A stretch of 64,000 nucleotides of DNA from Amphiscolops sp. MND2022 (Eukaryota): positions 66,652,001 to 66,716,000 of the forward strand of contig OZ076409.1 of assembly GCA_964187785.1 (NCBI GenBank), in the 5' to 3' direction. Of this stretch, positions 1 through 44,800 are shown in pieces; position 1 is the stretch's first letter, and each line of letters starts with the position of its first letter. Under the pieces are notes generated by a model. That model was not told where the DNA came from. It saw only the letters and a list, made by a program, of their open reading frames with translations, and searched no databases. Made by a program: the position numbers and the translations under genes.

Positions 1-1260
1 ACTGATAAAGGTACTGCATTTACTTCTACAATTATTGCGGAGGTTACGCAGATTTTGGGCATCACACTCAAATGTGCAACGACAAAACACCCGCAGACAA
101 TTGGGAAATTGGAGCGAACTCATGCCTCATTGAAAACAAATCTCAAAATGGCATGTGGGGAATATCGCCGACAGTGGCACAAATACTTGCCATTAGCAGT
201 ACTGAACCATAATACAAGCTATCACGCCAGCATCGGTTGTGAGCCAACGAGAGTATTTCATGGAAGAATTCCATTTAATATTTTGGATCACAAGCTTGGA
301 AATAATCCAAACGAGCAAATTAACCCCACAACCGAATTTGCTGAAGAGATCCAAAACCGGACAAAAATCCTGATTGACAAAACAAAGCAGAACATTATGC
401 AGTCGTATATCAAGTACAAAGAATATTACGACCGCAAAGCAAAAGCCGCTCCACTAAAGGAGAACGAATACTGTTTTGTCCTACAGCCGAAAGCGGACAA
501 TCAGGGATCAAAAATTCCATTCCGCGATTACCGTTGGGTTGGACCATTTGTAGTCCAAAAGGTTTTGCCAAATGAAAACTATATAGTAAGACGGATCAAT
601 ACGAACAAAACCCAAATTTTGCATCGCATTCGTCCTAAAAAGTTTGTCCCTAATCAGCCTCTTGAGGACAATTTCCAAGAACAACAGTTGCAGCCAGACG
701 AAGAAATTGTCATTCCGCAAGATGATTTATACGTCATAACGTGGGAAACCGACTTTGGCGAGCAGCTAGTTACACGAGGCAACGAGACTATTCCGACCAG
801 CATGCCGAATGGCGAACGACCGAATGCGGCAGAAACGAATACAAATGACGTAGCCGAGAATGAAGCGGATTACATAATCACGAGTGACAAAACAAACTAC
901 GCTGACCACGCGGCGCGGAACCGGAATGAAAGATTAAATCATGACGTCACAAAAAGGAATGAAGCTAGTGAAGCGACTAGCAACAGCAAATCTGATTGGC
1001 CGAATCCGGCCGTTTACCCCAAAGGACGAGAAAAAACTTTACCGAATACGGATAAAAGACCAAAAAATGATGAAATTCTCCCAGAAAGAAATTTGACGAA
1101 TGAAAATGACGCACAAAATTCTCCGAAAAGGGGGGATGATATTATCGTGCCCGAAATATCCGAAAACGATGCTAGAAATGAAAGTCTGAGCCCTAGAGGA
1201 GGGAAATATAATCTCAGGCCTAACCCTAACCCAACATACTCAGAAGACTTTAGATACTAG
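1..1260 (+). CDS. pol: Gypsy pol polyprotein C-terminus (integrase core, GPY/F-type region, disordered tail); 5'-partial
   Basis: Frame open from base 1: TDKGTAFTS...HPQTIGKLERTHASLK (D,D35E core), WVGPFVVQKV motif, terminal GKYNLRPNP motif; no stops. Confidence 0.95.
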   Translation, partial: TDKGTAFTSTIIAEVTQILGITLKCATTKHPQTIGKLERTHASLKTNLKMACGEYRRQWHKYLPLAVLNHNTSYHASIGCEPTRVFHGRIPFNILDHKLGNNPNEQINPTTEFAEEIQNRTKILIDKTKQNIMQSYIKYKEYYDRKAKAAPLKENEYCFVLQPKADNQGSKIPFRDYRWVGPFVVQKVLPNENYIVRRINTNKTQILHRIRPKKFVPNQPLEDNFQEQQLQPDEEIVIPQDDLYVITWETDFGEQLVTRGNETIPTSMPNGERPNAAETNTNDVAENEADYIITSDKTNYADHAARNRNERLNHDVTKRNEASEATSNSKSDWPNPAVYPKGREKTLPNTDKRPKNDEILPERNLTNENDAQNSPKRGDDIIVPEISENDARNESLSPRGGKYNLRPNPNPTYSEDFRY

Positions 1261-1503: not shown

Positions 1504-4500
1504 TTAGTCCTTAGAACAACCGGCAGGAGATTCTCTGACGACGGACGAGGCTCTCGAGCGGGATCTGCTCCTCTCCATGCGCTTCCGTTTGCGGTCACCG
1601 GGCGGGACTACTGCAGGCATATCTCCAACGCTGGAAGACGTTGTCTCATCGAGGCCCACTTCACCTAATCCAGAAAGGGCGGAACGATATGACGTAAGAA
1701 GGGACTTGTAAATTCTATTCCTACCAAACTCGTCAACGGAAGTCCAGGGGTCGTATGAGGCAGATGAGACAGTTTGACTGAAGGAGGCAGAAAGCAGAGA
1801 AAACTTAGCCAAACTAGAGTCACTGATACAGAAGGCAGTGGAGTCCGGAACCCCTGACAGATAACTCTGGACGGGTAAAACCACGTCTGTGAGTCTGTTC
1901 TGATGTTTTGTAGTGTTGGCAGTTCCAATACGTACTGTTGGGTATTGAGGACTTTCAGACGTAATGCATAAACAACTCAACTTGAATAGATATAACAGAC
2001 GACTATGCTCCTGCATAAAGTCAAGATTGACAAGGAAATCAATAAGATCCGGTGATCCCTGGCTAACATCGAATGAAGGAAGAGATGAAGCCTTGAGATG
2101 GTCCAATAGCTCCACGTACTCGTCCCGGCAGGTGGACTCATTTGCTAGACTGACCCAAGACCTGAGCTGAAAGGTCCGATATAATAAGTCGAAGTGACGT
2201 AGCGCTACTTCAGTGGGCCTTTTTACCAATTTATAAGGGTCAAAAGCAGCAAGGCCACGAACAAGATTAGAGCAGAGTCCGGCCTGGTGAAGAACACCCC
2301 CTATCAGGAACTGGATGAAATTTTGGCAGTCTCGGACGAAATCATTCTTGATGGTTTCTGCGGTCTTCTGCACTGCGGACCTGTCAGATTTCTTCCCAGA
2401 ATGGATGCCTTCTGATTTTTGCCTACTAGCTTTAGCAACTTTGTTCTTCATATTCAGTCGAGTGAGGAACTCATCAACTGGGAGGAATGCCCCCTCACTG
2501 GTTTGGAAGTTTAGAAGCAAGAACCACGAATTTTCGAGAGGGATGGTATCAGGAGCATAACACCGGAAGCACAGTCTGTAGACGTAACGGGCAACTTCCC
2601 CGCAAAGATAGAAGCAGGAATCACGTCCCTTATGCAAGTTGGAGGAGAAACTAGAGTCGTCTAAAACACAAGATACTTAGGTGTATTGGTCCAAAAGGAA
2701 AATCCTAGACTATCAAAACAGACTAACAATCACTAATGAGGTGATAGAAGAATTCCAACTTCACTGGAAAGAACTCATCACAGATGAGTGACCATTCAAA
2801 GCTCTGAACCTGCAACAAAAGGTTTACGGTGCGACTTCAAGACTTCCCCGTTTAATAGGAAAAGACGAAACCTGAGTTGAGACACTTACTCTAGTTCTGA
2901 CTCCTTGGCCCAGTTGTTTGGGAGAGTGCTCGGTAAGGAAAGAGACCACGGACTTCCACTCGTCCATGAGTTCTTGACACAAGAAAGGCAGTGTAGACAG
3001 GTCTAGATCGCTCTTGGAAATAGCCTAAAGAAAAGGCGGAGCCACTGCAATAACCCGTCTAGAAACCCTTAGGAGTGCGAGTTAGTGCTACAATATGATA
3101 CGAGCGCCCACTTACTTTGGCCAGTTCGGGACTGCGCTGTATCCAGTCCTCATCGGTCAACCCGCCCAGGGAGATGACCAAGCCGCGTAGCACTGAGAAG
3201 AAGTCTATGTGGCCGAAGACACTGTAGTTCTTCTTGTGCATCAACTTGGACAGATTGAGCTGGTTGAACCTGAAGCAGCTCTGAACAGCCCGCACTGAAG
3301 TTGGGAGCTCATCTATGGTCCGGATTAGGTCGGCCGGACACCCAGAACAGGCCACTACGTCTGCCTTTGTTGAAATTGCAGACAAGAGTCGCGCCATGGA
3401 ACCTAACTCTCCAGTGAGGTCGGTGGTGGGTAGCCTACTGCGACAAGCGATGACCTTGCAAAGATATTGACCCTTCCAGAACCTCACGGACATGAAGCGG
3501 TTGGGCCCCTGGTCTTCAAATTCCAAGGCAAAGCATTGCAGACTGGAAATTTGGTCAGCGACGTCACTCATGGCGCAGTTGAAGAAATGCTGGAATATTG
3601 CCTAAAATGGACACAGACCAAATATTAATAACCCAGAAAGGGAAAAGTCCTGTGAGAAGGGAAAGCAAATAACACTTACAGTCATCCTCTCTTCTCCCCA
3701 GTCGAAGTCGCAAAGGGAAGCTTGATGGTCAGTAATGGAACTGACTTTGGCCCACATGCTCCGGAGGATGGTGATGTCGCCATAGCTCTGGATGAAATCA
3801 GCTACCATGCTTAGCTGAGTTCTTGCTCGGGACTCGGGAGTAACCAAGGGAGTAGTCCTACCTCGAACGAAATCCTCGTAGAAAGGAAAACGTTCTCCAA
3901 TATCCACTAACTCCACATGGATAAACTTGGGGAGCTCCTTGGCCAGTTCTATCTTGCTCAAGATCTTCCCATTTCTGCCTCGGACTCGGTGTTGGGTCTT
4001 GAGCGTAATTGGATCGGTACTTTTCAGATACTCGTACCTCCACCTCTGGTCCCGTCTAAGATGTTTCTCAGTTCTGTGGTGCCTGAGTATCTCCATTGTC
4101 CCTTTACTTCTAATGGAGAAATTCTTCTTACAAAGGTGACACCAGACCATGAAGGGGTTGTGGATCGGATCCGCTGGCCCAGAGATAAACGACCGGGTCC
4201 AACCGATTTTTGCGAAGAACTCCTCTCGCATTGGGACTCCACGTTGAGGTAGTCTCTTGCCCTTCGGGGTCTTCTTACTCGGCAACTTGGTCGTAGACCG
4301 CAGTGACTGTTCTCTCACCTCAGATAAAGTGATATCCTGACTGCTTCGGTCAGTTTCTTGACTACCAGTCTGCATAACTCCTGGCTGCTCTGTAGGTGAA
4401 ACAATCGGGACGTCTGTGGTTTTGACTGAAGTTTCAAAAGAGGCCGAAATCAAGGCCATTTCGCCAGCACTGTCGCTTTCTCCGAATGAGGAAGAGTCGC

Positions 4501-5629
4501 CAAGTGTGCCCCGGTCTATGGTGTCATGTCCCTCTGAATCCGTAGTTGACAAGTCACCGGTCCCGGCGTCGCTGGAATCGCTATCAACTTGCCTGTAAGG
4601 AGTCTGTGCTCTGGTCCTTGATTTGAAATGGTCAGTGCGTGATGGGGCGATTGTAGGACTGCCCCGGACTGCATCCAGGATCATTCTTTCCATAGTAGAA
4701 TGTGACATCCGAAGCGTTTCGTCAGTTAAGATGCGTAACAGGTGATACACCTGAGACTCTGTGAAGGCAACTGCTGTTTGTCCTGGTGGGAACCGAAAGG
4801 CATGTGTCTCATCGAAATAAGTTTTCAGTATGGCTCGTGCCCTTCCAGAAAGTTCAGGAGGCTGGACGTCAAAGCCTTGAGAAGTGGATGCCTGTGGGTC
4901 GGTCTGGTGCTGCCTGAAGACGGTAGTGTCAGGGCATTCACTGGTCTCTCTTCCAGATTCAGACATTCCAGGAATATCTCCATAGAGTGAAGGACATTCG
5001 GTACTGCTCGCCTCCCCGGTTGTCTTCTCAGCCTCACTCAAGTCGGTCAAGAACCGGACTTTGTGTTCCTGGGTGGGCAGCATAGGAACTTCATATACAG
5101 AAGATTCGCCATACTCGTCATCCAAGGTCCTCCTAACTGGCGGAACAACGGTCTCCGCTTCAGTGGCAGGAAGGAGCTCAGGTAATTGGGATCCAGGGTT
5201 GTTTACAACTGTTAGACCTGCCTCTAATGTGTGCAAGCTAGCTTGGGATATTCCAGCAGTCTCCACCGGTATTGGGGTGCTAGACCGAACGGGGACTAAA
5301 CTCTGGGGAACATAGTCATTAGTGGAAGCCTCAGGATTGGCCGTCATCAAATTGGGATCACTGGTAGGTGATCGTTCGTGTACTTGGCTCTGCTCGACCT
5401 CCATTTCTTGCACTTTAGCTTCTGCATAGGCATTCACGTCTACCTCACTTTCGACGCCTTGAGGAGAAATCACAGATCTGGCGATGTACGCCACACTTGG
5501 AACTGTACCTTCATTGGAAATTGTTTGCGGCAGCCCAGAAGGGCTTGATGCGTTCTCAATCTCAGAAGCCTGATTATCTAAACGAAAAGAGATAAAGTTT
5601 AGCGGTATGCTTCCTTGAAAAGTGTCCAT
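1504..5629 (-). CDS. 5-exon antisense gene, 1269 aa: disordered N-terminus + BED-like Zn finger + hAT-transposase-like domain. Exons 5629-3680, 3601-3116, 3024-2890, 2809-2728, 2660-1504
   Basis: Four short GT-AG introns (78, 91, 80, 67 nt; donors GTAAGT x3, GTTAGT; acceptors TTTAG x3, TGCAG) join three ORF-track ORFs and two small exons in frame (phases 0,0,0,1; 3810 nt). Finger WCHLCKKNFSIRSKGTMEILRHHRTEKH at ~4147-4061. Confidence 0.85.
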
Positions 5630-6683
5630 TTTACCGCGTTGGAAATCTTCCGGAAGTGTCTTGAAAATTGAATGAAGCGTGCTTTCACGCGTCTAGTTGA
5701 TGGAAACAGGAAGCGTCATGTGAACAATGTTTAGCCTTGATCAAGCTAAGCTTGTTTGAAAGAAAGAGAAAATCAAACCAACCTGGATTGGAAGACATGT
5801 TGCCGTAATGTTACTCGTACAGTAAATGCTCTCGTCGGGCGAAAGAAGCTGAGGGAAATGGCCGTGGGTGGACTGAAGTTAGAGGCCCTAGTGCTGCAGA
5901 GAGGGGATCGACAGCAGAGTTAGAGACAAAGGGAAGATGAATATCAGCTAGGAGAATCCCAGTAAGGGAAACAATTGATATATAAATAGAATTCGAATGG
6001 AATTAAAGATGAATAAAGGAATTGGAAAGTTGGAGTTCGTGGCTGAAGAAATTACCAGACTAATATTATATAGTTATTTACATATTTATAATAGTGCATG
6101 GAGTCTGCCAGCGAAATGCACAGAACAACCTCACCTTTCTACAGATTATCCAATTAATGGCCGGTTAAGGCCATTCGCCTTATTTTATTCTGCCGGGTTG
6201 TCCCATTACCCTAATTATCTCCACGCGAAATTATCGCCATTTGGAATTATTCGGGATTATTATTTTCCGCCATTTTATTATTCAATTTTACAATTTATCA
6301 AAGCTCAATTCTGATTGGCTGAAGCCCATTTTGAGAAAACTTTGCGACGCATGCCGTTAATTGCTTACAAGCGACCCGTTAATTACCCACTTGAGACTGG
6401 TGTAGTTGATATTAAAAATTCAAGCGTCATTCACACCTCTCATAGTGATGACGCCGATGAGGGGTAAACACTGAAATATCAAAGGGTGCCGATTAGTTAT
6501 GGAATTCCATTCAGGAAAGTTTACGACGGATCAGGACGACTAACCGATGTTTTAACCGCCAAATTGGAAACTTCGGAAAAGCCTTACTGGGCTAAATTCT
6601 TGAATCGGATAAATTCATTCTACCTAAAACTTCACCTCAAATCAGTTGCCTTATCAGCTTCAAAAATCGCTAAAAAACTAATA

Positions 6684-7466
6684 ATGAGTAAGTTCAACCT
6701 CTCAAGAAAGTTGTTTGACTTTGAGGAATATGAATCCGATGATTCTAGCAAATCAGTAATCTACATATCCAGTAGTGAAGAAGAATCCTCAGACTGGGAG
6801 ACCGATTGTTCGACAGATACCGAGCAGCTAATTGCCCGGATTGAAAGGGAAGTTACTTCCAGTCCCGTGCTAATCGGGGGCAGGATAATGACCATGGATG
6901 AGCCTGAAGATGAAGCGAGAGCAGGGCCAAGTACGTCTCATGTAGAAGAAGGAACGACACCGAAACTGGGCATTAAATATTTTGACAGGGAAATGTGTTA
7001 TGCCCCGCCAAGGAGAATTGAAAAGAAACGCATAGAGCTCTGTAACACAATAATACCCGTCCTAGAATCGCCAATGTCACCTCCGGAACACGAGAGAGGG
7101 CCAAGCTTGGACACTCCCCTTGCACAGTCAATCACGAGTAACTTCCATGCGTCCTACCATGTGCAAAACACAGTGCCCTATCAAAATGTCAGTGCGGTGC
7201 CTTATACGGGATGCATGGTTTGCGGCCGTTCAGTGGACTCGATCAAGAACGAGAAGGTGGAATGGTACATGCAGCGATCCACACCCAGAGATGAGCCTGA
7301 GCACATCACCAGGCTTAGGAAGGAAGCGTACGAGAACGGACTTAACGCCGGCTGTTTTCTTTTTATTACTCCCGCAGTGTCGCAGGCTGCCGCCTGTGAC
7401 GGTACGAGTGTGACAACGTCGGCAACTGGACAAGAATTCGTACCCGGAACATTACCCATTTATTAA
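6684..7466 (+). CDS. Retroelement accessory ORF3 (~260 aa from first ATG): acidic/Ser-rich N-terminus, CxxC, C-terminus inside the LTR
   Basis: ORF track 6486-7466 (GTG start); first ATG at 6684. VIYISSSEEE and GCMVCG motifs; the SxAAACDG-like peptide recurs at the start of all four LTRs. Confidence 0.7.
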   Translation: MSKFNLSRKLFDFEEYESDDSSKSVIYISSSEEESSDWETDCSTDTEQLIARIEREVTSSPVLIGGRIMTMDEPEDEARAGPSTSHVEEGTTPKLGIKYFDREMCYAPPRRIEKKRIELCNTIIPVLESPMSPPEHERGPSLDTPLAQSITSNFHASYHVQNTVPYQNVSAVPYTGCMVCGRSVDSIKNEKVEWYMQRSTPRDEPEHITRLRKEAYENGLNAGCFLFITPAVSQAAACDGTSVTTSATGQEFVPGTLPIY

Positions 7467-9235
7467 TTGGGATAATTTACAAACTTAGAACTTTCATACT
7501 GTTTTGTTATTCAATACGTAATATGTTTGTTGATGTTGTTAGCTTCGATATATATGTACTTGCACATGTAAAATTAGTCTGTTAAAAGTCACATTTGAAG
7601 ATTCAAATAGTGTATTTGTAACTTCAAAAGATTGAAAGGCGCTTTGCTATTGTAAACGTAATACGTGACAATGTAGCTGTACAGTAGAAAGGAAACGAGT
7701 TCAAGTGAACGAAACTCCTATTCCGGAGACGTCACTTGAGCTCAACTCCTTAGCCAATCACGTTGCTCCTTTTCTATAAGTAATACCACTTTGATTATGT
7801 AATGGCCGAGTATGGCCAATTGACTCAATAATTGTGCCTTTTAGTCAAACGGCCGGTACCGGCCACTTCGTTGGAATAGCCTGTATGTGTGTTAATTGGG
7901 TGTACTAATCGTAAATTACTGTAAATGTACTCTTAATAATGAATGAAAGCCCCAATGCCGCGCAATGAGCTTAATAAACCTAGTACTCACTCAAAAGCCG
8001 AATAAGGCTTTTTCCCTCTTTTATTACAGTGCTGAAATAATAAACCGGATTTGTCCATCTTCGGCATTGTCAGAAAGTGTGTTATTTTAATAATGCTGTA
8101 TTATTTTAAGCAGAACTGATCATGTAATATTTAATCTAGTTCCTACTCACGTTGAATAATAGGCGCGTGGTAACGCGTGTCACAAGCACATTCCGAAGAG
8201 ATGCCTTTTGCATTCCTTCAATAGACATTGGTATTTGTTGACAGGATGATGTTGATGATGTTTATAAACACGACACTTGAAGGTGCTGCTTGTGTACCCT
8301 GTTAAATATCATTCTTTTGATGTTGAATTCCTAAGGACTACCCTGAAACTAGGAATTTTCCCAATCGGGACATCACCCTAAAATATCTGCTTTGAAGTGT
8401 TGAACACCCTACCCGATGCTGTAATAACACTTGTCACATGACCCGTTGAGGCCATAGTCATATGATGTTTTCTTGATCAAAGAATTTGTGGAATGTGAGT
8501 GTGATCTTTTTAGGAGTATATATAGCTATATTTCTGTAAAAAAGGACACAAATCCCATACCTTTACTTTGATAAAGATTGAATTAATACAACGACTTTTG
8601 TCAGTTTTCCGGTTTTGATAATTGAATTATTCAACCGGGTTCTGTCTTAATGCCTACCACTAGAAAGCAAAAGAAAGCGAGAAAGTCTAGGGGACTTGAG
8701 ATGTTATCAGATATTGAAAATCTGGATATCATGTTAGGCGAAAACCATTTTGGTGCACGAGAAAGAGAAGGTAGCCTGAATAGCAATTTACCTAGGAGGT
8801 CTAGGAGTTTTGCTAGTAATGAGTCTGACAATGGGGACGGGAACGGAAGTAGACCCAGGGGAAATATTGAACCTAGGATGAGTGCCGAGTGTGATCGCAA
8901 TTCTATCACAGGTGATTCTAGCGCTGAAATAAACAGATTGTCTAGCGAACTGAACTCTCGTATTTCACGGGAAATGGATGAGATGATGAATTCCGTAAGT
9001 GTCCAAATACAGAGAGCCATAAACGACGCGATAAGTACTCAAGTACTTCCTCAAATCCAAAATGTTATAATGGCCGAACCAGGACACAGGATCAGAAAGG
9101 GATGGGACGTTCCGGCCGAGAGACCGGAACCAAATTCCGAAGTTCAGCGAGACCTTAACGCAAAGAGTAGCTTAAGAAACGAACAATATGTGAATCAATT
9201 GAACGGTGATTACCCTGACCTAAATGTTCATGACA
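7378..9235 (+). repeat. 3' LTR (1858 bp) of the cargo-bearing Gypsy element
   Basis: Starts TGTCGCAGG like the solo LTRs, ends CATGACA; contains a TATA-like box (~8516) and the MPTTRKQKK ORF. Confidence 0.9.
8650..9235 (+). CDS. LTR-encoded N-terminal ~195 codons of a putative gag ORF (open through the LTR end)
   Basis: MPTTRKQKKARKSR...LSDIENLDIMLG...RISREMDEMMNSVSVQIQRAI...VLPQIQ has homologues in all four LTRs; the frame is open across the terminal CA. The gag identity is inferred from position only. Confidence 0.6.
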
Positions 9236-9299
9236 CTAATTTTTTTAAAGCTTCTATTACAACACTTTTGGAGTATTAATAATTAAACGCTTAGTTTTT

Positions 9300-9900
9300 A
9301 TAAGCCATCAAGAAACTTCTAGAAGTAAAAAAGGCGCGTATATTGTTTTAATTCCTTTAAAATTAAAAATTCCATATTGTTTTAATTCCATTGCGCGTTA
9401 ATTACCATCAAGTGCTGATAAAAACTATGAGTTTTATTTTATGTACCAATTACGTAAAAATTGGAAAACGTGGGTGCCCAAATGTAAAAGAAAAATCAAC
9501 AGAACTCGGATCTTCGGGGACATCAGAAAATTTTTGGCACAATAGTTAAAAATCTCATTTTGGGTCCTAAAATCTTCGTGGTGTCGTTTGGCTAAAATAG
9601 TCTCTCGAAAAAATTGAAAGCAGAACACAAAAATGATGACAACGCGTTCAGTGTAACAAACGAAACATGAAACCCTAACCCGAAGCGTTTCAGCATCTTG
9701 TAATCAGAGCAAACCAAGATACACATGTTATGGTTGACAAAAGAAATGTGAAGATTGTCATTCGCGATGAAAATTGACTCAAGAAATTACATCCAAGAAA
9801 GTTGGCCAGACTTCAGATTCTGTTCTCAGTTCCAAAAAACTGATATACCATCAAAAACGCAAAGAAGTTCGAAGAAAAGAAAGCTGTGATTAATCTTAGC
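9300..9900 (-). pseudogene. Degenerate paralogue of the GPCR at 18015-19205 (TM4-TM7 remnant)
   Basis: FFRETILAKRHHEDF..QNEIFNYCAKNF vs LFRETAMAKRHHEG..QSEFLYQCAKSF; CILVCSDYKMLKRFGL vs CVLGCTDFKFLKYIGL; frameshifts and stops. Ends approximate. Confidence 0.8.
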
Positions 9901-14637: not shown

Positions 14638-16353
14638 TGTCGTGTGTACAATCTGCACTTTCCTCATGCAGACAAGTAAGGCTCACTCCTTGAACAACTC
14701 CTGATTTTCAGACTAGGATTATCTTCGGAGTTACGTTCCGGTTTCTCGGCCGAGACGTTCCATCCTTTCTGTGTCATTTGTCCAGAACCGGCCCTGAGGG
14801 AGTTCTGAATATGGGGCAAAACTTGATTGCTTTTTGCATCGTTAATAGCCCTTTGGATTTGAACACTGACACTGTTCATCACTTCATCCATATCTCTCGA
14901 GATCCTCAAATTAAGCACGCCTGATAACCTATTAAACTATGCACTAGAGTCTGTGCCAGCTGAGTTGTGGCCATAATTGGCACTGTTACTCTATCTATTT
15001 TCCCTAGAATTAGGGTAACTGTCCTCTTCGTTAGTTTCTGGTGCATTGATATTTGGACTACCAGGTCTCCTAATGGAGTCACCAAACTCACTTCCTTCCC
15101 TTTCCAGATGATTGCCTCCCAACATAATATCTAGATTTTCTATGTCTGATAACATTTCTACTCTTCTAGAATTTCCAGCTTTCTTCTGTTTTCTAGTAGT
15201 AGGCATCAAGAAATCCTGATTGTAATATTTTATTAGGAAATCAGGTTTGGATATTTTAAGCGTGTGAATAGTCGTAGAACCAAACAAATTGTGTCCCTCC
15301 CAGGAGAAGTAGGGGTATATAAATATATCCCTGAGAGATTGACTCTAACAATTTTACATGAACTGTATAATTAAAATAACATTCCAATCGCGTTTTGTTG
15401 AACAGAGTTTTACATAGTTCTAGTAGGTAAATTCCATAAAAGGCATGTGATCAGCATCTTGATACTGCACTTGGGTACATAGATCGACCCACTCAAGATT
15501 TTGACCTATCGGGGACTGAACATATTTGAAACAGTTAATAGCATAGGTTGTAAACAATCACGAACATCAAAGTTTTAGCACCTAAATGTCGGAAATATGC
15601 AACAACGAATTCTTGTACACGGAATTAAGTTAGCATCCGGTTAAATACATTGATATACATGATCTCATAAAGGCACTGAGTTGACCTAAATCAGCCATTG
15701 TACATAAACTAGGCAATATTGTCCTGCTTTGATCGGTTCAGATATTGGTTTTTATTAATGTCAGCAACGATTAAAACATTTAACAACTCTTCAATTAACA
15801 CCGTTTATTCACAGTATTCGACATTTCAAGACAGTTTTAAGTACTTCTCAGGGAAATACACAGCACTACTAGTTGAATAAAGCAGCCAATCTGATAAAAG
15901 TGAAACACGCGGAATCCGGCCATTTAACTAGCGTCCCTGTGAGTGGTGGCCCAATTAAGTCAATTAGCCGCATCCAGCGAAATAATGTACTGCTCTGAAA
16001 TGATATTATTAATACTGCACTGTGTTTGGTCAGCTATAAGCCAACAAGTTACGACGCCGAGAAAGGACATTTTAGCACTCGAACACGTTTCCTTTGCATC
16101 GCACATTATTCAATTTACTTCTTGCATTTCAACTTTACATTGCTCCAAACTACCAAATCAGCTCTTTGAACAACAGTTAACAGACTAATACAAAACAAGT
16201 CTACGAGAATATTTAAACAAACTAAGTACTAGTTTTATGAGAGAGATTGTTTTTAGTTTCAATATCAGAAAGTATGGTGTGTTCCAGGTGCAGTGTTTTG
16301 TCCATTTGCGGTTGTCGTGATCGCTGTGCCATCACAGGCGGCATCCTGCGACA
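14638..16353 (-). mobile_element. Solo LTR (1716 bp) of the cargo-bearing Gypsy family
   Basis: TG...CA ends, 5-bp TSD CTGTA (14633-14637 / 16354-16358), frameshifted MPTTRKQKK ORF (ATG 15206). Confidence 0.92.
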
Positions 16354-18014: not shown

Positions 18015-19205
18015 TCAATCCGAAATATCATCAAAAGATGGTAATGTGCTGGTCCTGGTTGCTTCGTAGTTGGAATCTCTGTTATTAGGAGCATAGGAAA
18101 TTTGGTTATTGTATTCATTTTGATTACGCTGATTATAGAGAACATTTCGCGCCGTAGCTGGGCGTTTTTTCCAAAGACATGGGCATATTCTCTTTAACTT
18201 GGGAACAACGATTCCTCGAAACTCGAACCATGTCCATGCATAGAGAAACGGATTCAGGGCGCAATTAACCAGAGGTGTAAGTTGGACCACTTGATCGAAC
18301 CAATGCTGCATAAGTTTTTCTTCTAGTTTGATATTAGCATTGCCGATTACGTAAACATACCAGAAGATTTGGTTCGGGACCCAAGCGAGAATGTAAAAGG
18401 TCACTATCAAGGTCAACCGGATGCAAAGTGACCTCATAAACGATTTCGCACATTGATATAGAAACTCAGACTGAGGGTCAAAGTCTCTGCGACCTTCATG
18501 GTGTCGTTTCGCCATTGCAGTTTCTCGGAACAATTTGAAGTAGCAGACAAAAACAATTATCAAGGGGATTATCATCACCAATGAAATCTGCAAGACCAAA
18601 CCTATGTATTTAAGAAATTTGAAATCAGTGCAACCGAGAACACACTGGACTTCGCCATCTCGTTTCCGAATGTAGAAATTAAAGGGGCTGTCGTTAAGAA
18701 TAACCAAACCGAGAACCCAGCTGAAAACAAGCAGACAACGGATGCGACATTTAGTCCCAAACAGAAAGGTGTACCATTTGGGTTTCAAGTCACCCTTAGA
18801 TGCACCCAAAAGTTCCATGGTAAGAAAGACAACCAACCACGAGGATGCGCATGTTAGGGTCAAGACGAGGAAGTTTGAAAGGTAGATTCTGCATATTATT
18901 TGACCGCCTATGCCGTCTGGGATTCCTGCTTTTGCTGGGTAACATATTTGGGCAATCATGCCTAGATTTTGAAGCATGTCCGTGAAAGCTAAGTTTTTCA
19001 ACACTCTGAGGTGATTGGTGAGGTTCGATGTTGAAAAAAGAACAAAATAAATGAAAGCGTTCATGATGATACCAAAAACACCGCCGGCCAGCATGCACCA
19101 AAAAAATCCATCGTGGGGATCGTATTTTCCATAAATAACCAAAGCATCATCGTCATCATCAGTTGTCTGTCTTTCAAAGTGGAATAAACCTGATTGAAGT
19201 ATCAT
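18015..19205 (-). CDS. Intronless class A (rhodopsin-like) orphan GPCR, 396 aa
   Basis: Seven hydrophobic segments; TM2 NLAFTD, TM3 Cys and ECL2 Cys, TM6 FYILAWVP, TM7 NCALNPFLY; the DRY position reads ELL. Confidence 0.92.
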   Translation of the reverse strand: MILQSGLFHFERQTTDDDDDALVIYGKYDPHDGFFWCMLAGGVFGIIMNAFIYFVLFSTSNLTNHLRVLKNLAFTDMLQNLGMIAQICYPAKAGIPDGIGGQIICRIYLSNFLVLTLTCASSWLVVFLTMELLGASKGDLKPKWYTFLFGTKCRIRCLLVFSWVLGLVILNDSPFNFYIRKRDGEVQCVLGCTDFKFLKYIGLVLQISLVMIIPLIIVFVCYFKLFRETAMAKRHHEGRRDFDPQSEFLYQCAKSFMRSLCIRLTLIVTFYILAWVPNQIFWYVYVIGNANIKLEEKLMQHWFDQVVQLTPLVNCALNPFLYAWTWFEFRGIVVPKLKRICPCLWKKRPATARNVLYNQRNQNEYNNQISYAPNNRDSNYEATRTSTLPSFDDISD

Positions 19206-20876
19206 TGTTGAATCGTAAAAAGCAAAACAAGGACTCTACCAGTCGAAGGAGATGATAGCCGCTGAGAAATATAAATGTACAATCCGATATTTGATTAAAA
19301 TCGGAATTTCAGAAAATATAGAATTGTGAAAGAATCATTCAACTGGCAAAACAGGTGCCGAAGTTCTTGAACAAAACATTTTTGACGTTCGTATGAATCG
19401 AATGAGCAAATAGAGAGGGTTGAACATTCTTGAATGACCCGAATGAGCAATTAGATGTGGACTGAAGCTATCTTAGTTCAACTCTTTTGCTTGGTTTGTT
19501 AGTGAATTTATCAAACGACAAGATTCGAACGAAACCATCCCAGCGTCGATTCTCATTTGGTGACGCCATAGCCACTGAATGTATTCAAGAAACTCGTTTG
19601 TCAGCAATTTCATTGATTCGAAAGTTGGTTTTACTTAATAGCATAAAATATGCATGACGTGTAACGGAAGAATGAAGATATTAACGACACAAGGCTTCAT
19701 TCTCAAAAGGAGAATCATTCAAATTGTTCAGCCGTATAATGCTTCCATTGTTATTTGTCATTCGTCGTACGCGTCTTTGCACTTAATATTCAAAATGTAA
19801 CCAGATTTTTCCACAGAGGAACCCTCCAAAAACTCGATTGACTCTCTGTTCAAACCCGGAAATATTGTGGAAGACCATATGAAAATGCGAGAGGCGATGA
19901 GGCATTTTTGGCATTTTTGAAACATTAAGGATATTGATTTTAACTAAACTAATTCTCACTTTTGAGTGTGGAATATATATTTTTGCAAAAGTGGACTGAA
20001 TTATTTTCATTGGGCAACCTTTTGGGCAGGCAGAAAGAGCCACAAGTAAAATCATCAAATCAAAGAAATTCGCTCACAGCGCAAAAATTTTTGAATCTCA
20101 AGTTATAGAGATTCAGTAACAAAAGGTTCTAATATAACCAAAACGTGAGAAACCTAAACAATATGCAACCTACATTTAAATGTTTCTTAAAGGGCTTTGT
20201 TGCTTGACTCCATAAAATTTCATGAAGGTTTTTGGAAAAAAACTAATGAAATCGAAAGTAAGTATGAATTCTTTAATGTTAAAAACATCTAGTTTCAAGT
20301 AGCTCTATAAATGAGTTTTCAATCCTCAGAAGTCACTCAAAACAACGTCATATTTAATGTATTTTAGTTAAATTGGTTTTCTTGGACCTCACAAGTTTGT
20401 GAGAACACCCAGGAGAAGTAGAAATTGTTTTTTAAGTGCTTGGATGACGTATCCGGACTTGGAGTGTGCCGGTTACTCGTCCCGGAGCTCTTAAATGAAC
20501 TCATGCAAAACAACGGGAAAAATAACATTAGATTTAAGAAAACTATTGAATTGACAACCTTTATTAACAGGCTGAAAGCTGATTTTCTACCTGGTATTCA
20601 GTTGTTAAACATATGAAAGTTTGAGTTCTTTGCTTAGTGAATAAAGTCGAAAAATTACAAAGAGTTTAAGTTCCAAATTATGTATCTGATACTAAAAAGT
20701 TTCAATTCTTAGTAAGTCTTGATCTGATCAACTTCGAAGCTTCCGTGGATGAAATACTTGCAACCGAACAGGTTGTCACTGTGTATCGATCGTATGTTTC
20801 TCACTTCGCTTCTCGAACACTATCTCGATCATGTTGATCACGTCATACAGCTATCATGACGTCACTGTTGATTACG

Positions 20877-35800: not shown

Positions 35801-38800
35801 TTCGAACTGACTCATTTGTTTAGTAGCGGAGGTTTCCAGACTTAAGTTTACAACACCTAACTATTTTTCTAGTCGGCGCTTTCATATAATAAAAGAGCCC
35901 GAGTATTACAGTCACTCGTTTTTTCGTCACGTTATATTCGAACAGTATATTCCATGACGTCCAACGCATATTCTAGAAACTGCGCTTTTTGAGCATTAGA
36001 TATAGCGCCGACTATAGACGTTCCCGTCTTGTTCTATATTTATAAACAAACCTTCGTAATATCTAAAACATAGGACGTGTATTCATATGCAAAATTCATG
36101 GAAGAAAACAGATCAAGATAAGTTTACGACTTTGTTCCCACAAAATTTTCAGTGTCGACGAGTAATACTTGCATCTTCAACAAGACACCAACCGGGCGAC
36201 GGGATATTTTTTTGCGCCATACTTCATTAGCGGTGACATATTCTTGAGGCTCGAGCATAGTCAAAAACTGCAAAATTTGTACAAAAGATCGAAAATGTTA
36301 AAAAATTTACTTTTTTGACGTTTTAATATTTTTGCGAGAAAATGCAAGTCTTTGTGTGCAAAAAGCTAACTGTCTTAATGAATGTGGAATTCTGTGGATA
36401 CTCATTCCCACGCACAAAAAAATCAAAAACACAAAATTTCATGAAACGGTCAAAAACAAAAAAAATATGAAACATTTTATTTCATTTTGAGCATCTTATT
36501 CGTAAAAATCCGAATTTTGTCTTTATCATGGAATATGCAGTGTAGTCTAAAGTTCTGTTGTTAATTTTTAAATATACTCATACAGAGGTACAAAAATTGT
36601 ACAAAAATTTCTAAAACGGTAACAAATGGAACAATGTTTGGCTTTTTAACCTTTTTTTCCGAATCTTAATGAGTCTTAATGAAGCGTGCTGCGTAAATTT
36701 CGATATTCAACCCAGAATTTCTAACCCATTTAAGAGTACAGCTAAGGCATGGAAAGCCACAATTCGAAACGTTTGACATTTTCGAGGGCATTTTGGTACA
36801 TTCTGGCGCGTACGGCGACAATTCAAAGTCAGTCGAAAAATAGACATTTCATATCAATCAAAATTCTCATCAAAACACTTTAGAATATGATTTTATTTTA
36901 AACATTAGTGCCTTGGATAATGAATTCATTATCACACCCGGATCAAAAAGATTGTAGAGAAAATATTCTTTGTAGAAAGAATTCAATGTGAAATGATTCC
37001 AAATAAGTTTTAGATAATGTAATGGCAATTAATTATAAAATGTTCAGAAGTATCTTTAGGAATTGTACTACCTATCGACAAACCTGATACGAGTTGTCGC
37101 GTTTTTAGTCCGCTCGTTCCGTGCCCGACTTTTACAGTGGGTAGTTTTTTTTCAGTTCCCCCTGAATGGTCCACTTTTTTGTTCACTTGTTCAAACATTT
37201 TCAAAGTTCGGATATAACGTTTTCAACTTCGGATGTAACGCTTTCAAGTTCGGATGTAATGTTTTCAGAGTTCGGATATAACGTTTCCAATGTTCGGACT
37301 TAACGTTTTAAAAGTTCGGATAAAACGTTTTCAAAGTTCGTATGTAACGTTTTCAAAGTTCGAATGTAACGTTTTCAAGATCGGATGTAACGTTTTCAAG
37401 TTCGGATGTAACGCTTTCAAGTTCGGATGTAATGTTTTCAGAGTTCGGATATAACGTTTTCAAAGTTCGGATATACCGTTTTCAAAGTTCGGATTTAACA
37501 TCTTAAAAGTTCGGATATAACGTTTTCGAAGTTCGTATGAAACGTTTTCAAAGTTCGGATGTACCGTTTTCAAGTTCGGATGTAACGTTTTCAAGTTCGG
37601 ATGTAACGCTTTCAAGTTAGGATGTAATGTTGTCAGAGTTCGGATATAACGTTTTAAAAGTTCGGATATAACGTTTTCAAAGTTCCTATGTAACGTTTTC
37701 AAAGTTCGGATGTAACGTTTTCAAGTTCGGATGTAACGTTTCCAAGTTCGGATGTAACGCTTTCAAGTTCGGATGTAATGTTTTCAAAGTTCGGATATAA
37801 CGTTTTCGAAGTTCGGATATAACGTTTTCAAAGTTCGGATTTAACATTTTAAAAGTTCGGATATAACGTTTTCAAAGTTCGTATGTAACGTTTTCAAAGT
37901 TCGGATGTAACGTTTTCAAGTTCGGATGTAACGTTTTCAAGTTCGGATATAACGTTTTCAAAGTTCGGATTTAAAGTTTTAAAAGTTCGGATATAACGTT
38001 TTCAAAGTTCGTATGTAACGTTTTGAAAGTTCGGATGTAACGTTTTCAAGTTCGGATGTAACGTTTTCAAGTTCGGATGTAACGCTTTCAAGTTCGGATG
38101 TAATGTTTTCAGAGTTCGGATATAACGTTTTAAAAGTTCGGATAAAACGTTTTCAAAATTCGTATGTACCGTTTTCAAAGTTCGGATGTAACGTTTTCAA
38201 GATCGGATATAACGTTTTCAAGTTCCGATGTAGCGCTTTCAAGTTCGGATGAAATGTTTTCAGAGTTCGGATATAACGTTTCCAATGTTCGGATATAACG
38301 TTTTCAGAGTTCGGATATAACGTTTCCAATGTTCAGATTTAACGTTTTAAAAGTTCGGATATAACGTTTCCAAAGTTCGTATGTAACGTTTTCAAAGTTC
38401 GGATGTAACGTTTTCAAGTTCGGATGTAACGTTTTCAAGTTCGGATGTAACGCTTTCAAGTTCGGATGTAATGTTTTCAGAGTTCGGATATAACGTTTTA
38501 AAAGTTCGGATAAAACGTTTTCAAAATTCGTATGTAACGTTTTCAAAGTTCGGATGTAACGTTTTCAAGATCGGATGTAACGTTTTCAAGTTCGGATGTA
38601 GCGCTTTCAAGTTCGGATGTAATGTTTTCAGAGTTCGGATATAACGTTTCCAATGTTCGGATATAACGTTTTCAGAGTTCGGATATAACGTTTCCAATGT
38701 TCAGATTTAACGTTTTAAAAGTTCGGATATAACGTTTTCAAAGTTCGTATGTAACGTTTTCAAAGTTCGGATGTAACGTTTTCAAGTTCGGATGTAACGT

Positions 38801-41800
38801 TTTCAAGTTCGGATGTAACGCTTTCAAGTTCGGATGTAATGTTTTCAGAGTTCGGATATAACGTTTTAAAAGTTCGGATAAAACGTTTTCAAAATTCGTA
38901 TGTAACGTTTTCAAAGTTCGGATGTAACGTTTTCAAGATCGGATGTAACGTTTTCAAGTTCGGATGTAGCGCTTTCAAGTTCGGATGTAATGTTTTCAGA
39001 GTTCGGATATAACGTTTTCAAAGTTCGGATTTAACATTTTAAAAGTTCGGATCTAACGTTTTCGAAGTTCGTATGTAACGTTTTCGAAGTTCGGATGTAA
39101 CGTTTTAAAGTTCGGATGTAACGTTTTCAAGTTCGAATGTAACGCTTTCAAGTTCGGATGTAATGTTGTCAGAGTTCGGATATAACGTTTTAAAAGTTCG
39201 GATATAACGTTTTCAAAGTTCCTATGTAACGTTTTCAAAGTTCGGATGTAACGTTTTCAAGTTCGGATGTAACGTTTTCAAGTTCGGATGTAACGCTTTC
39301 AAGTTCGGATGTAATGTTTTCAGAGTTCGGATATAACGCTTTCGAAGTTCGGATATAACATTTTAAAAGTTCGGATATAACGTTTTCAAAGTTCGTATGT
39401 AACGTTTTCAAAGTTCGGATGTAACGTTTTCAAGTTCGGATGTAACGTTTTCAAGTTCGGATATAACGTTTTCAAAGTTCGGATTTAAAGTTTTAAAAGT
39501 TCGGATATAACGTTCTCAAAGTTCGTATGTAACGTTTTCAAAGTTCGGATGTAACGTTTTCATGTTGGAATGTAACGTTTTCAAGTTCGGATGTAACGCT
39601 TTCAAGTTCGGATGTAATGTTTTCAGAGTTCGGATATAACGTTTCCAATGTTCGGATATAACGTTTTCAAAGTTTGTATTCAACGTTTTCAAAGTTCGGA
39701 TGTAACGTTTTGAAGTTCGGATGTAACGTTTTAAGTTCGGATGTAACGTTTTCAAGTTCGGATGTAACGCTTTCAAGTTCGGATGTAATGTTTTCAGAGT
39801 TCGGATATAACGTTTTCAAAGTTCGTATTTAACGTTTTCAAAGTTCGGATGTAACGTTTTCAAGTTCGGATGTAACGTTTTCAAGTTCGGATGTAACGCT
39901 TTCAAGTTCGGATGTAATGTTTTCAGAGTTCGGATATAACGTTTTCAAAGTTCGGATTTAACGTTTCAAAAGTTCGGATATAACGTTTTCAAAGTTCGGA
40001 TGTAACGTTTTCAAGTTCGGATGTAACGTTTTCAAGTTCGGATATAACGTTTTCAAAGTTCGGATTTAAAGTTTTAAAAGTTCGGATATAACGTTTTCAA
40101 AGTTCGTATGTAACGTTTTGAAAGTTCGGATGTAACGTTTTCAAGTTCGGATGTAACGTTTTCAAGTTCGGATGTAACGCTTTCAAGTTCGGATGTAATT
40201 TTTTCAGAGTTCGGATATAACGTTTTCAATGTTCGGATATAACGTTTTCAAAGTTCGGATTTAACGTTTCAAAAGTTCGGATATAACGTTTTCAAAGTTC
40301 GTATGTAACGTTTTCAAAGTTCGGATGTAGCGTTTTGAAGTTCGGTTGTAACGTTTTCAACTTCGGATGTAACGCTTTCAAGTTCGGATGTAATGTTTTC
40401 AGAGTTCGGATATAACGTTTTCAAAGTTCGTATGTAATGTTTTTAAAGTTTATGTAACGTTTTCAAAGTTCGGATGTCACGTTTTCCAAGTTCGAATGTA
40501 GAGTTTTCAAAGTTCGAATATAACGTTTTCAAAGTTCGGAAATAACGTTTTCTTGACACTCTGAAGTCGTTTTGCTATTTTTGAGACTTAGATATGGCCT
40601 TGACTTGGGCAATTCCCGGCTTGTTCTAATTGATGTGTTATTTTTTAGTCGGCGCTTTGATTAATAAAAGAGCCCGACTATTACAGTCACTCGTTTTTTT
40701 ATTTAAGACAGACTCGAAGCGACGAACGTTAAAATTAACGTTCAACTACTAAATACAGTACTAAACTACTGTACCGGCAAAGGCAAACGGGGAGCGCATT
40801 TAGCATAGTGCAAAGGGTCCCCCCTTTCAGTTACTCCATTTTTATTGTAAGATACAAAACAGGACGAGACTATAGGGTTTGAGTTTTTTTCGGCAATGTG
40901 CGACTTTTTTTCGAAATTTTTTTTGTCTCCAAAGGGTCCCCCCTTCAAGTTTTTTGATATTTTACAGCAAATTGAAGTTTCCAAAAGCCCAAAGGGTCTC
41001 CCCTTTTACAATTTCAAAAAGTTTGAGTTTTTTGAGCTTTAGATATGGCGCCGACTTTAGACGTTCCCGTCTTGTTGATATGAGTTTTCGCTTTTAATTT
41101 TCTTCCGCCCATTTTCCCTATGGGGAAAATATTTCAATCTGTCGCATTTTTACTCCAAAAGTGGCCATTTCGTTTCATAAATTTCGTTTCATGCAATTTG
41201 TATTTGTAGTTTTAGACTTTTTGGGTATGACCAAAATGACCCAATAATGACCCAGAGATTACCCCAAAAATGGCAAAATATGCAAGATTTTCCAATTTTC
41301 AACAAGTTTGTACAATTTTGATCAGACAGACTCCGTGGCTTAGAATGTTAAAGACGTTCAAAATACACTTGCAACTTGAGGGGAAAATGTTGCCCTGGAG
41401 GCTCATCGGAAGACATAAATGACAATTTTCAATAGAAAAATGCCTCAAATTGACTCCGATGTCGAAAAATCTAAAAATTTCCCTAAATTAAAAAATCTTG
41501 AAAAAATTTTAAAAATAAAATCGCTTTTTGTAATTTTTGTCAAATTTTCAATAGACTTTGTGGATTAGAATTTTGAAAACGTTCAACAAGGAAAGAATTC
41601 GTTGTACAAAAAGTTTTTCTTAAGAGATAAATGCAGTTGTGATTACAACGATAAATTCCCCGCTGGTCAATAGGCGCCTTGTTTCATATTGTATGAGTTA
41701 TTGCTGATATGAGTTTCGAAATTTTTTGACAATTGAAAAGCTGAAATATCTTCACAAGTACAGATAAAACATACCAAATTTTATGATAGCTGGATTCCGT

Positions 41801-44800
41801 GGAACAACATTTGTCTTTTTGGCATGAAATTGGAATATTGGTAAAATGAGAAAAACACGGCTCAGCTAATAATTTTTTTTCTAAAATAGAAATTTGGGTG
41901 AAAACTTATTCAGTTTCCCTGTTTCATTAAATATCAATTTTTCATGAAATGTCAAATTGCTTTAATTCTTTCACATGACAAGTGTACTTTTGGGAGCAAA
42001 TCTTTTTATTGTATTGTTGTGAAGATAGTAAAGATTTATGGACATATGGGCCAAAAATATTTGAAAGTAATTTAATCACCCCTGTGAAAGGTAGATAACG
42101 ATTTTCTATTTCGAATTTGGCAAGAAAATGCCTGGGATGTATTCACCTGTATCAGTAAAAATTACAGCTCCCTGCCGGATATTATGCAATATGCGACAGA
42201 AGTTGACACCCAACCGTGTGTGGAGAGGAGAAACGATAAGACACCGACAGGGGGATATTTCATTCCTCTGACGTCATTAGAAGAAGATGACCCTGGTTGA
42301 AGAAAAATTGCAAGCCTTGCAAGTATACATCAAAGAGCTTTTCTTAAGATGCATTTTTCAAAAGATGTTGCCAGTAAATATCTTTCACGGAAGAATCTTG
42401 AAAAAATGAATACAGATCCAACGAAAATTGGGCTTATTTCAATCATTGCGAGATCATTCAAATGAATGCGCCTTTCCTTTTGGGAGGCGGAAATTTCGTC
42501 GCAAGAAATTTCGTCGTCGGAAATTTCGTCGTAGGAAATTTCGTCGTATTAGCAAATACAGAAATTTCGTCGTCAGAAATTTCGTCGTATTGATAAAATT
42601 CAACAGCGTTCGGGAAAATTGAAATTAAATTCAATTATTTAATTATTAAAACGAGATTTTAACAACTTTCATTTTGACACCAAAACTGAGTCAAAAAGTT
42701 AATTGCATCCAATCAATTCATCAAGAACTACGTATTTTACCGGTGTATTCACACCATACTAGCCAAAAGTTTGCTTGGACCATGTCATCTATTCCCCCAA
42801 ACGGCGGCGGGGGAAATAAGACAAAAGGTTCAAATAACATTATGTCGACATTGTTTGCGTTGAAATGTTGGTCCAATAAAATAATATTTCGGTCCAATTC
42901 ATATAATATTTTCTTATTAGAGAAATATTTTTATTCAAGAACAAAATGTGCTTTAGTGCAGGGAAAATTCGGAGCTTTACTATACAATTTAGGTTTGTTC
43001 TGGAGGTGAATTTTTGCTTTTTTTTCAAACTTTTTCTGGTAAAATCATCTCTAAAAGTAGTCAATAATAGCAATAATTGTACAATTACCGATAATTGTCA
43101 AGACGCGGTGAATTTTAAGACATCAATAATATTAGACAATTCCTAATAGCTTAGATAAAATGCGACGTTTTATAGAACGTAATTTCCGACGACGAAATTT
43201 CTGACGACGAAATTTCTGACGACGAAATTTCTGACGACGAAATTTCTGACGACGAAATTTCCGATGACGAAATTTCCGACGTCGAAATTTCTGGCGACGA
43301 AGTTTCTGACGACGAAATTTCTGGTAATCCTCCTTTTCTATTTGCTCACATGTTTTTTGCAAAATTCCTTCCAGTCTTTCAATTATTATGCAATACTTTG
43401 CTCCATCTTGGAAGATTCTTACAAACCACTTGCAAGGAAAGTGTTCTTCTCGACCAGGGGCGATTCAAATTTACAGCATGCCTTTTGGAGACCTGACGGA
43501 CGAGACCGATAGAGCTGATGAATGCAGAGGTATCCAGACTAAAGTTGTTGTCCAGTTGGCATGTAAAACTCATCAATTGCGTAATTGTATGCCAGTTAAA
43601 ATGGGGCGTGAACTCAGTTCCGCGCTGAGAATTCATTCAATACCATCGGTGGTCATCGCAATTTTGTTCTGAAAGGCTCTGATGGAGTTTTAAAAATGAC
43701 ACGTTGTGACCCTTAAATAATCATTTGTGACTTCTTTTTCTATTATTTTCAAATCAATTTCATCAGAAAAGTTCACCAGGTTTGAGATATTTTTCCAAAT
43801 CACATCTTTTTAATTACAGAAATGCTCAAAAAGTTATTTGATTAGAAGTATCAATGCCAGCGTCTGAACTAAGAACCATGAATATTTACGTCTTGGGTTA
43901 ACTCCACCTATAATGCATGGTAACCAAACCGTTTGCTATAATCTACCCAGTGATCAAAGGCGAGAAACACCAAGATCTTGCCATTATCTTGAAATATTTT
44001 GATCTTTCCGGATCCAACTCCACATGCGATTCCTTGCAATTCCATGCACGGAGCCTTACGATAAATTCAAGCCGTTTCCATGCATAGAATTGAATGAAAC
44101 CATATGATTCCAAAGCATGGAATTGTATTGATCATATGGTCCCATGTATGGAATCGCATGGAAGCCCCATGAATTCAGATCGATTCAGATCCATGGTTGT
44201 CAAGGTTTTCTATGTCTTCGAATGCAGGGTAGCTATGGTTGTCAATGGAATTCTCCAACATCTCAAACAAGATATGCTGGTTCTAATCTTTATTTTTAAA
44301 AAAGTTAATTCTCACATATGTTCAAACATATTAAAAAATGTATCTAATTTTTTCTCTCTCGTCAAATGCAATTGATGATAACGGCTCAGATGAATCACCA
44401 GTAGTGTACTTCTTGCCAAATTGTTATTTCAGAGAATTTGGAGGTCCTTGGGTTTCGCTGGATAAAGGATACATGCTCATTTGGAATAAAATTACTCCAT
44501 CGCCTGGATCTAAACCCACTTTTGAGGGTTGCTGGGATGCTCTGGCTAATGAAATCGTCAGAACTTGTTGCGAGTACTACCCTCCACTGTTTCAAAAGAA
44601 CTACACCATTCACGCTTTCTTAGCAACTCATTCGTCGCTTCTTTTTAACATTGTAGCAAGTTTATGTGCTCTAAGGTTCATTGCTGAAGATGAAATTCCA
44701 GAAAATTTCCGAAAAATTCCCGAAATGGTCGTCAAACCCGAAACGGATGTTAATACAGAGAACTTGAGATGGCTGATTGACTGGCTATTGAATAACTCCA

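Follow-up and report, generated by a model that had tools for sequence, protein, structure and literature searches.

Why should a long terminal repeat (LTR) open with a hairpin that is also part of a coding frame? The question is raised by a stretch of 64,000 nucleotides from Amphiscolops sp. MND2022 (the window), in which the first-pass annotation had noticed a conserved GC-rich hairpin at the start of all four LTRs. All four sites were confirmed: a pattern scan allowing up to three mismatches gave five matches at four places, because the palindromic copy scored on both strands, and none in 100 shuffles. Copy 1 lies on the plus strand at 7379-7400, with a 9-bp stem (7379-7387 with 7392-7400) and a 4-nt loop (7388-7391). 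Copies 2 to 4 lie on the minus strand in solo LTRs with 5-bp duplications, at 16331-16352 (LTR 14638-16353), 49323-49344 (LTR 47734-49345) and 55949-55970 (LTR 54419-55971). Every hairpin starts one base past the first T of its LTR, the LTR starts being 7378 (+), 16353 (-), 49345 (-) and 55971 (-). Including that T, it makes up the first 23 LTR bases and overlaps the ORF3 codons V-S-Q-A-A-A-C-D. Copy 2 has one mutated stem base, a damaging change absent from most of its relatives; a Gln-to-Arg variant gives a G-U pair in copy 3, and copy 4 contains a perfect 20-bp palindrome (55950-55969). Solo LTR 4 carries its 3' end and target duplication twice, 26 nt apart (54393-54419, -). The rest of U3 is diverged, as had been stated: in a global alignment of these copies alone, the first 25 nt are 88-92% identical among the four, but identity falls to 48-63% across the 65 nt that follow and is 55-66% for nt 90-450. 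A search of 7000-9400 against Rfam, with E up to 1, found no family at the hairpin.

We favor, with a probability of about 45%, the reading that the 22-nt inverted repeat is a selected cDNA hairpin with a GCGNNAGC-type cap that helps to set the plus-strand start. We infer this function from the position and conservation of the repeat.

The owner of copy 1 is a 14.2-kb Ty3/Gypsy retrotransposon whose translated pol has the order protease, reverse transcriptase (RT), RNase H and integrase, with the integrase end at 1-1260 (+). Its relatives match Pfam PF00078, PF17919, PF17917, PF17921 and PF00665, and one RT relative (P0330) has a dUTPase family hit (PF00692). The 3' LTR (7378-9235, +; 1858 bp, TGTC...GACA) is followed by a 5-bp target duplication and contains, as motifs only, a TATA-like sequence at 7775 and AATAAA at 7973 and 8039. 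The 5' LTR, which also has a 5-bp target duplication, lies upstream of the window (L032:3072-4929); the limits were set by aligning the 5' and 3' repeats of whole elements. LTRs in the clade are direct repeats of 1.5-1.86 kb with TG...CA ends, and 5-bp target duplications flank the pairs in 7/7 evaluable cases of one set and 9/10 of another. The primer binding site (PBS) after the 5' LTR has 12 nt complementary to genomic tRNA-Leu(CAG), exact in 8 of 10 pairs and with one change in the other two. The element thus resembles Ty3 and retroviruses in its tRNA PBS, its pol order, its LTR ends and a primer position just upstream of U3. Sequences like tRNA-Leu 3' ends also occur in a tandem array (G000:C8:35587099-35634473, one per 180-530 bp); this pattern has 999 matches genome-wide, 984 of them on one strand. 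The gag gene starts about 590 nt into the LTR and reads through the PBS (8650-9235, +, for its head inside the LTR of the window; L032:4344-5345), and in the copy-1 element it carries an internal stop. Three long antisense frames without a Pfam hit lie between integrase and ORF3 (1504-5692, -). One has a Cys/His motif that we take to be BED-finger-like, and homologues are also present in a more distant element.

ORF3 (6684-7466, +) encodes 260 amino acids; its last 28 or so codons are inside the LTR and its frame runs through the hairpin. A Pfam search gave no family, and the best protein-atlas score, 0.79, is a lead at most. All relatives are unnamed (231 in one search, the best 150 of 620 in another), and wherever these cover it the S-Q-A-A-A-C-D block is the same. 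Identity between the two main clades is 25-31%. The protein has a conserved CxxC, additional Cys and His residues, and an acidic motif, VIYISS(D/S)EE, which we presume to be akin to a SUMO-interaction motif. Three ORF3 copies are spaced 14.1 kb apart (G000:C5:3374023, 3388125 and 3402227), with similar pairs on C2, C4 and C8; this spacing suggests tandem elements with common LTRs.

Beyond the window, positions were numbered with the Ser codon TCG as 1-3, so that paired positions sum to 21 and the loop ends are 9 and 12. The peptide-only pattern S-x-A-A-A-C-D-G, to which all genome counts of the hairpin refer, matched 5,871 places in the 1.07-Gb genome and none in the reversed control. All 50 loci chosen by protein search alone have the hairpin, which begins at LTR base 2 in every lineage examined. 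Forty random 10-kb stretches contained three hairpin-like sites and two more distant elements, neither with a locatable LTR start. The silent-site set of 131 loci contains places fetched twice and reduces to 112 unique intact junctions; copies with a broken ORF3 were left out of the trees. One dead LTR fragment was multiplied with an identical flank (L285, L289, L290, L292, L299 and L300) and is probably carried by another repeat.

The third codon positions of the hairpin pair with one another (0-21, 3-18 and 6-15), and the loop ends 9 and 12 are also silent. On a tree of 39 ORF3 lineage representatives, calculated with the hairpin codons left out, parsimony gave 12-19 changes (mean 15.2) at each of 19 four-fold silent control sites outside the hairpin, versus 0, 1, 5, 1 and 4 changes at hairpin positions 0, 3, 9, 12 and 15. 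The Gly codon directly past the stem had 17 silent changes. The picture was unchanged with 49 copies. Variants at 6, 12 and 15 were over-represented in the sample, a bias opposed to the low-change result. The first-pass annotation had named coding constraint from ORF3 as a confounder, and as a full explanation this is contradicted by the contrast between frozen and free silent sites. It had also proposed that free breakage of pairing by synonymous changes would leave the peptide to explain the conservation; when we looked for this, the silent sites were frozen, one silent pair was compensatory and the hairpin survived. By this comparison the hairpin is under nucleotide-level constraint. The Cys codon is invariant in 156 proteins, and protein constraint therefore coexists with it.

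Across 25 lineages, 222 of 225 cells pair. Covariation as judged from these sequences is modest, because mismatched lineages exist. A double change was found only at pair 6-15, where both positions are silent, and its count was not above shuffles (439/500). The 5,871 matches include 329 with A-U and 195 with G-U at this pair; about 38 copies with A and T would be expected if the two positions were independent, by a hand calculation that treats related copies as separate. The partner of 6A is not T in 99 copies, and 152 copies, partly the same ones, have a purine at 15. Copies with A-U at 6-15 form one large group that has a G-C lineage within it or next to it, which suggests about two double changes, possibly via an A-C intermediate. 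Two observations argue against a strict need for pairing: 6A/15C lineages, with about ten elements that have both LTRs, have replicated, and position 15 is A in an old group. One old 15A group consists partly of the dead fragment described above (6/25 loci). Of 36 junctions with inner pairs that are not Watson-Crick, 33 have G-C at 3-18, versus 27 of the 76 others, a pattern that suggests a stability threshold from few independent events. The G-U tolerance first reported for the stem holds for the outer pairs, whereas the loop and some inner variants fit the minus DNA strand better.

The minus-strand core reads GCGGCAGC, which is the GCGNNAGC mini-hairpin (7386-7393 on the minus, or cDNA, strand; first loop G at 7391, last loop A at 7388). 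According to the available part of PMC13037366, this motif is extra-stable DNA of the form GC-GNNA-GC closed by a sheared G-A pair; in its melting-temperature table the first loop G is essential, the last A is preferred but replaceable and the middle is free. Position 12 is C in all but 151 of the 5,871 matches, in 38 of 39 lineages and in all 50 loci picked by protein, and position 9 is T or G. The minus-strand loops of the 112 unique intact junctions are GGCA (80), GGGA (19), GGCC (10), and GGAA, GACA and AGCA (one each); 101 fit GNNA, and GGCC and AGCA are the remainder. A young Ala-to-Pro lineage (25/50 protein-picked loci) changes only the free loop base 10, giving GGGA. The closing GC-GC is altered in an Ala-to-Thr lineage (3/50 loci), which, like the 6A/15C lineages, has minus-strand G-T wobbles. 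Which loop positions are frozen and which are free thus agrees, at the level of sequence, with the published rules read on the minus strand. This match was spotted after the fact and is one of 16 combinations of positions 9 and 12; GGCA, GGGA and GGCC are outside the table in the available part of PMC13037366, so the motif is matched here by sequence.

How could such a fold act? RNase H would nick the RNA over U3, and the freed minus-strand cDNA would fold and clear the first 22 nt of U3 of RNA fragments; the RNA itself could fold as well, with G-U tolerated. The RNA just upstream would stay annealed, with its 3' end at the stem foot, and would prime at TG. If structure rather than purine content marks the junction, a purine run of only 7-9 nt could suffice, and one derived clade could exchange it for CCCGC(A/T)G. 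At -34.5 kcal/mol the intact 22-bp hybrid is more stable than the two hairpins combined (about -24), so that nicking must precede folding. Among 11 elements, 17 of 24 nt are invariant at the U3 edge, versus 3 of 24 at the U5 edge. The 7 upstream nt are conserved too, and primer sequence therefore still matters. A point against the mechanism is that a stable template hairpin right behind the primer could hinder initiation. Self-priming by fold-back of the minus strand was rejected because the terminal base is unpaired and the first plus strand could not arise in this way.

It had been suggested that the hairpin replaces a missing polypurine tract (PPT). The plus-strand primer position of copy 1 (7371-7377, +) is CCCGCAG, not a purine tract, and its silent sites are conserved within the clade. 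A PPT is indeed absent for the families of copies 1 and 2, but those of copies 3 and 4 keep a short run of 7-9 purines ending in GGGGAG. Over the 112 unique junctions, a 7-9-purine run is present in 71, and CCCGC(A/T)G or a one-base variant in 41, including window copy 1; both types are conserved at silent sites, and protein hits suggest that further upstream variants exist. Between lineages with and without the run, RT is 86-89% identical, and both have the one invariant hairpin. In an RT tree that joined 11 elements with 40 database relatives of 71-76% identity (midpoint root; relatives known as proteins only), the three that lack the run were nested among the eight that keep it (support 100). 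Since the hairpin is equally conserved with the run and the clade without it is nested, the hairpin predates the loss of the tract. It did not arise as a replacement, given its presence in purine-run lineages, but it may have allowed one branch to lose its purine-rich primer. Two other readings of the upstream sequence were dropped: the pyrimidine run before copy 1 as a splice acceptor, because the run codes for Phe/Leu and is absent as such in other lineages, and primer sliding between the two CGCAG repeats of clade A, because one sub-lineage has CGCTG upstream.

The main rival is a protein-binding site in the double-stranded cDNA or provirus, contacted by integrase at the U3 end or by a dimer of ORF3 or an antisense-encoded protein on the palindrome. 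We regard it as possible, with perhaps half the weight of the cDNA hairpin. The hairpin lies within the terminal 25 bp said to be contacted by integrase (in the available part of PMC2829016), one lineage is a perfect palindrome, the frozen loop bases could be base contacts, and hairpin and ORF3 occur together in every 3' junction parsed. However, a symmetric integrase site explains three bases, as only TGT is invariant at both LTR ends; the remaining conserved bases of U3 are without a U5 equivalent, which departs from the short inverted repeats expected for integrase. The exchange of G-C for A-U and the apparent stability threshold indicate pairing, and none of the 39 lineages has the mirror-image loop (9G with 12A). 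In addition, the scanned stretch of one distant decayed element with antisense genes, whose LTR start was not located, contained neither an ORF3 hit nor such a hairpin.

A fold of the plus strand comes next and is somewhat less probable, counting its two forms jointly. An RNA stem-loop beside the primer could pause RT or shape RNase H cutting or packaging; alternatively, nascent plus DNA could form a hairpin at its 5' end that stops minus-strand extension at the LTR edge. G-U pairs at 0-21, 3-18 and 5-16, and at 6-15 in one lineage, fit RNA, and Copia elements provide a precedent for inverted repeats where PPT and LTR meet. The natural variants rank best as plus RNA: among 2,048 synonymous codings copy 1 is in the top 2.5% as plus RNA and the top 21% as minus DNA, ranks from a nearest-neighbor model without a mini-hairpin bonus, and over 61 nt the fold z is -3.1 for plus RNA and -0.57 for the minus strand. 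Nearest-neighbor folding does not capture mini-hairpin stability (PMC13037366, available part). Against a plus-strand fold, its signal disappears in a 150-nt context (z = -0.29), T at position 12 folds as well or better on that strand, so that the frozen silent base is left unexplained, and the A-C variants of replicating lineages are mismatches there.

A second tRNA-binding site in U3, like the bipartite PBS of Ty3 (PMC5371799, available part), is improbable. A 7-nt word of the 5' arm also occurs in the primer tRNA-Leu(CAG), which can therefore pair with the 3' arm, and positions 8-12 are complementary to the 5' end of this tRNA; yet the matches are 5-7 nt long, the 3' arm is locked in the stem, and the Pro and 9G lineages break the 5-nt match. 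Peptide conservation alone can be set aside almost entirely: S-Q-A-A-A-C-D fixes six of the nine pairs by chance of the code, through first and second codon positions only, and the block is nearly invariant in 156 ORF3 proteins that have further conserved Cys, but this leaves the frozen silent sites unaccounted for beside 19 free ones, and the non-conservative Ala-to-Pro and Ala-to-Thr changes are tolerated where the fold permits.

The cDNA hairpin has partial parallels in known systems. The inverted repeats described from Sireviruses and other Copia elements sit at the PPT/LTR junction, with the PPT in the loop (PMC2829016 and PMC3601003, available parts). As in those elements, the repeat described here is conserved, precisely positioned at the plus-strand priming junction and, as is sometimes the case there, over coding sequence. 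Their PPT lies between arms of 19-28 bp, of which the right one begins 18-28 bp into the LTR. Here, in contrast, both 9-bp arms lie within U3 from base 2 around a 4-nt loop, in a Gypsy element and with one clade lacking a purine tract; the Sirevirus arrangement, with a loop that contains PPT and LTR start and a left arm that precedes the PPT, was not found. Mini-hairpins of the GCGNNAGC type are known from the phage G4 origin, RSF1010 ssiA and N4 promoters, and the available part of PMC13037366 does not mention retroelements with them. The hairpin shares with these a transiently single-stranded strand, an adjacent priming site and the same pattern of essential and free loop bases, although they are read by primases or an RNA polymerase. 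Ty3 and HIV prime with 12-15 purines, compared with 7-9 purines or a pyrimidine-containing 7-mer here, and the available parts of PMC5371799 and PMC3185511 mention no hairpin at plus-strand priming for either; according to the latter, primer choice is explained chiefly through the geometry of the purine tract, and no common consensus is shared by the different elements. The available parts of PMC10085805 and PMC11801639 held nothing further bearing on the hairpin. In the literature searched, with subscription papers, Repbase and supplements outside its range, no description of the motif or clade was found.

A minus-strand template hairpin that steers the plus-strand start also has a counterpart in duck hepatitis B virus, where a small minus-strand DNA hairpin regulates plus-strand priming by suppressing priming in place. 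Hepadnaviruses translocate a capped RNA primer and have neither LTR nor integrase. From its conservation and placement, the hairpin is in our judgment a selected cis-signal and a new form of structured signal at the plus-strand junction. Doubtful, and held with less conviction than the favored reading, is the stronger proposal that the clade sets its plus-strand start by a phage-origin-like DNA mini-hairpin instead of a PPT, inside a coding frame. If it were true, one branch would replicate without any purine tract and structure would direct second-strand priming. The favored reading, if right, would itself be a second way of defining the LTR end and would tie mini-hairpin DNA to retroelement replication, and annotation based on the PPT would miss a large, recently active clade. 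The matched natural lineages with and without a purine run make primer choice by RT testable.

The window has other features. A 749-aa open frame without a Pfam hit lies at 44335-46584 (+), and tandem repeats with 22-nt and 15-nt units occupy 37203-40000 and 43147-43338. A single-frame gene for a rhodopsin-family receptor (PF00001) is located at 18015-19235 (-).
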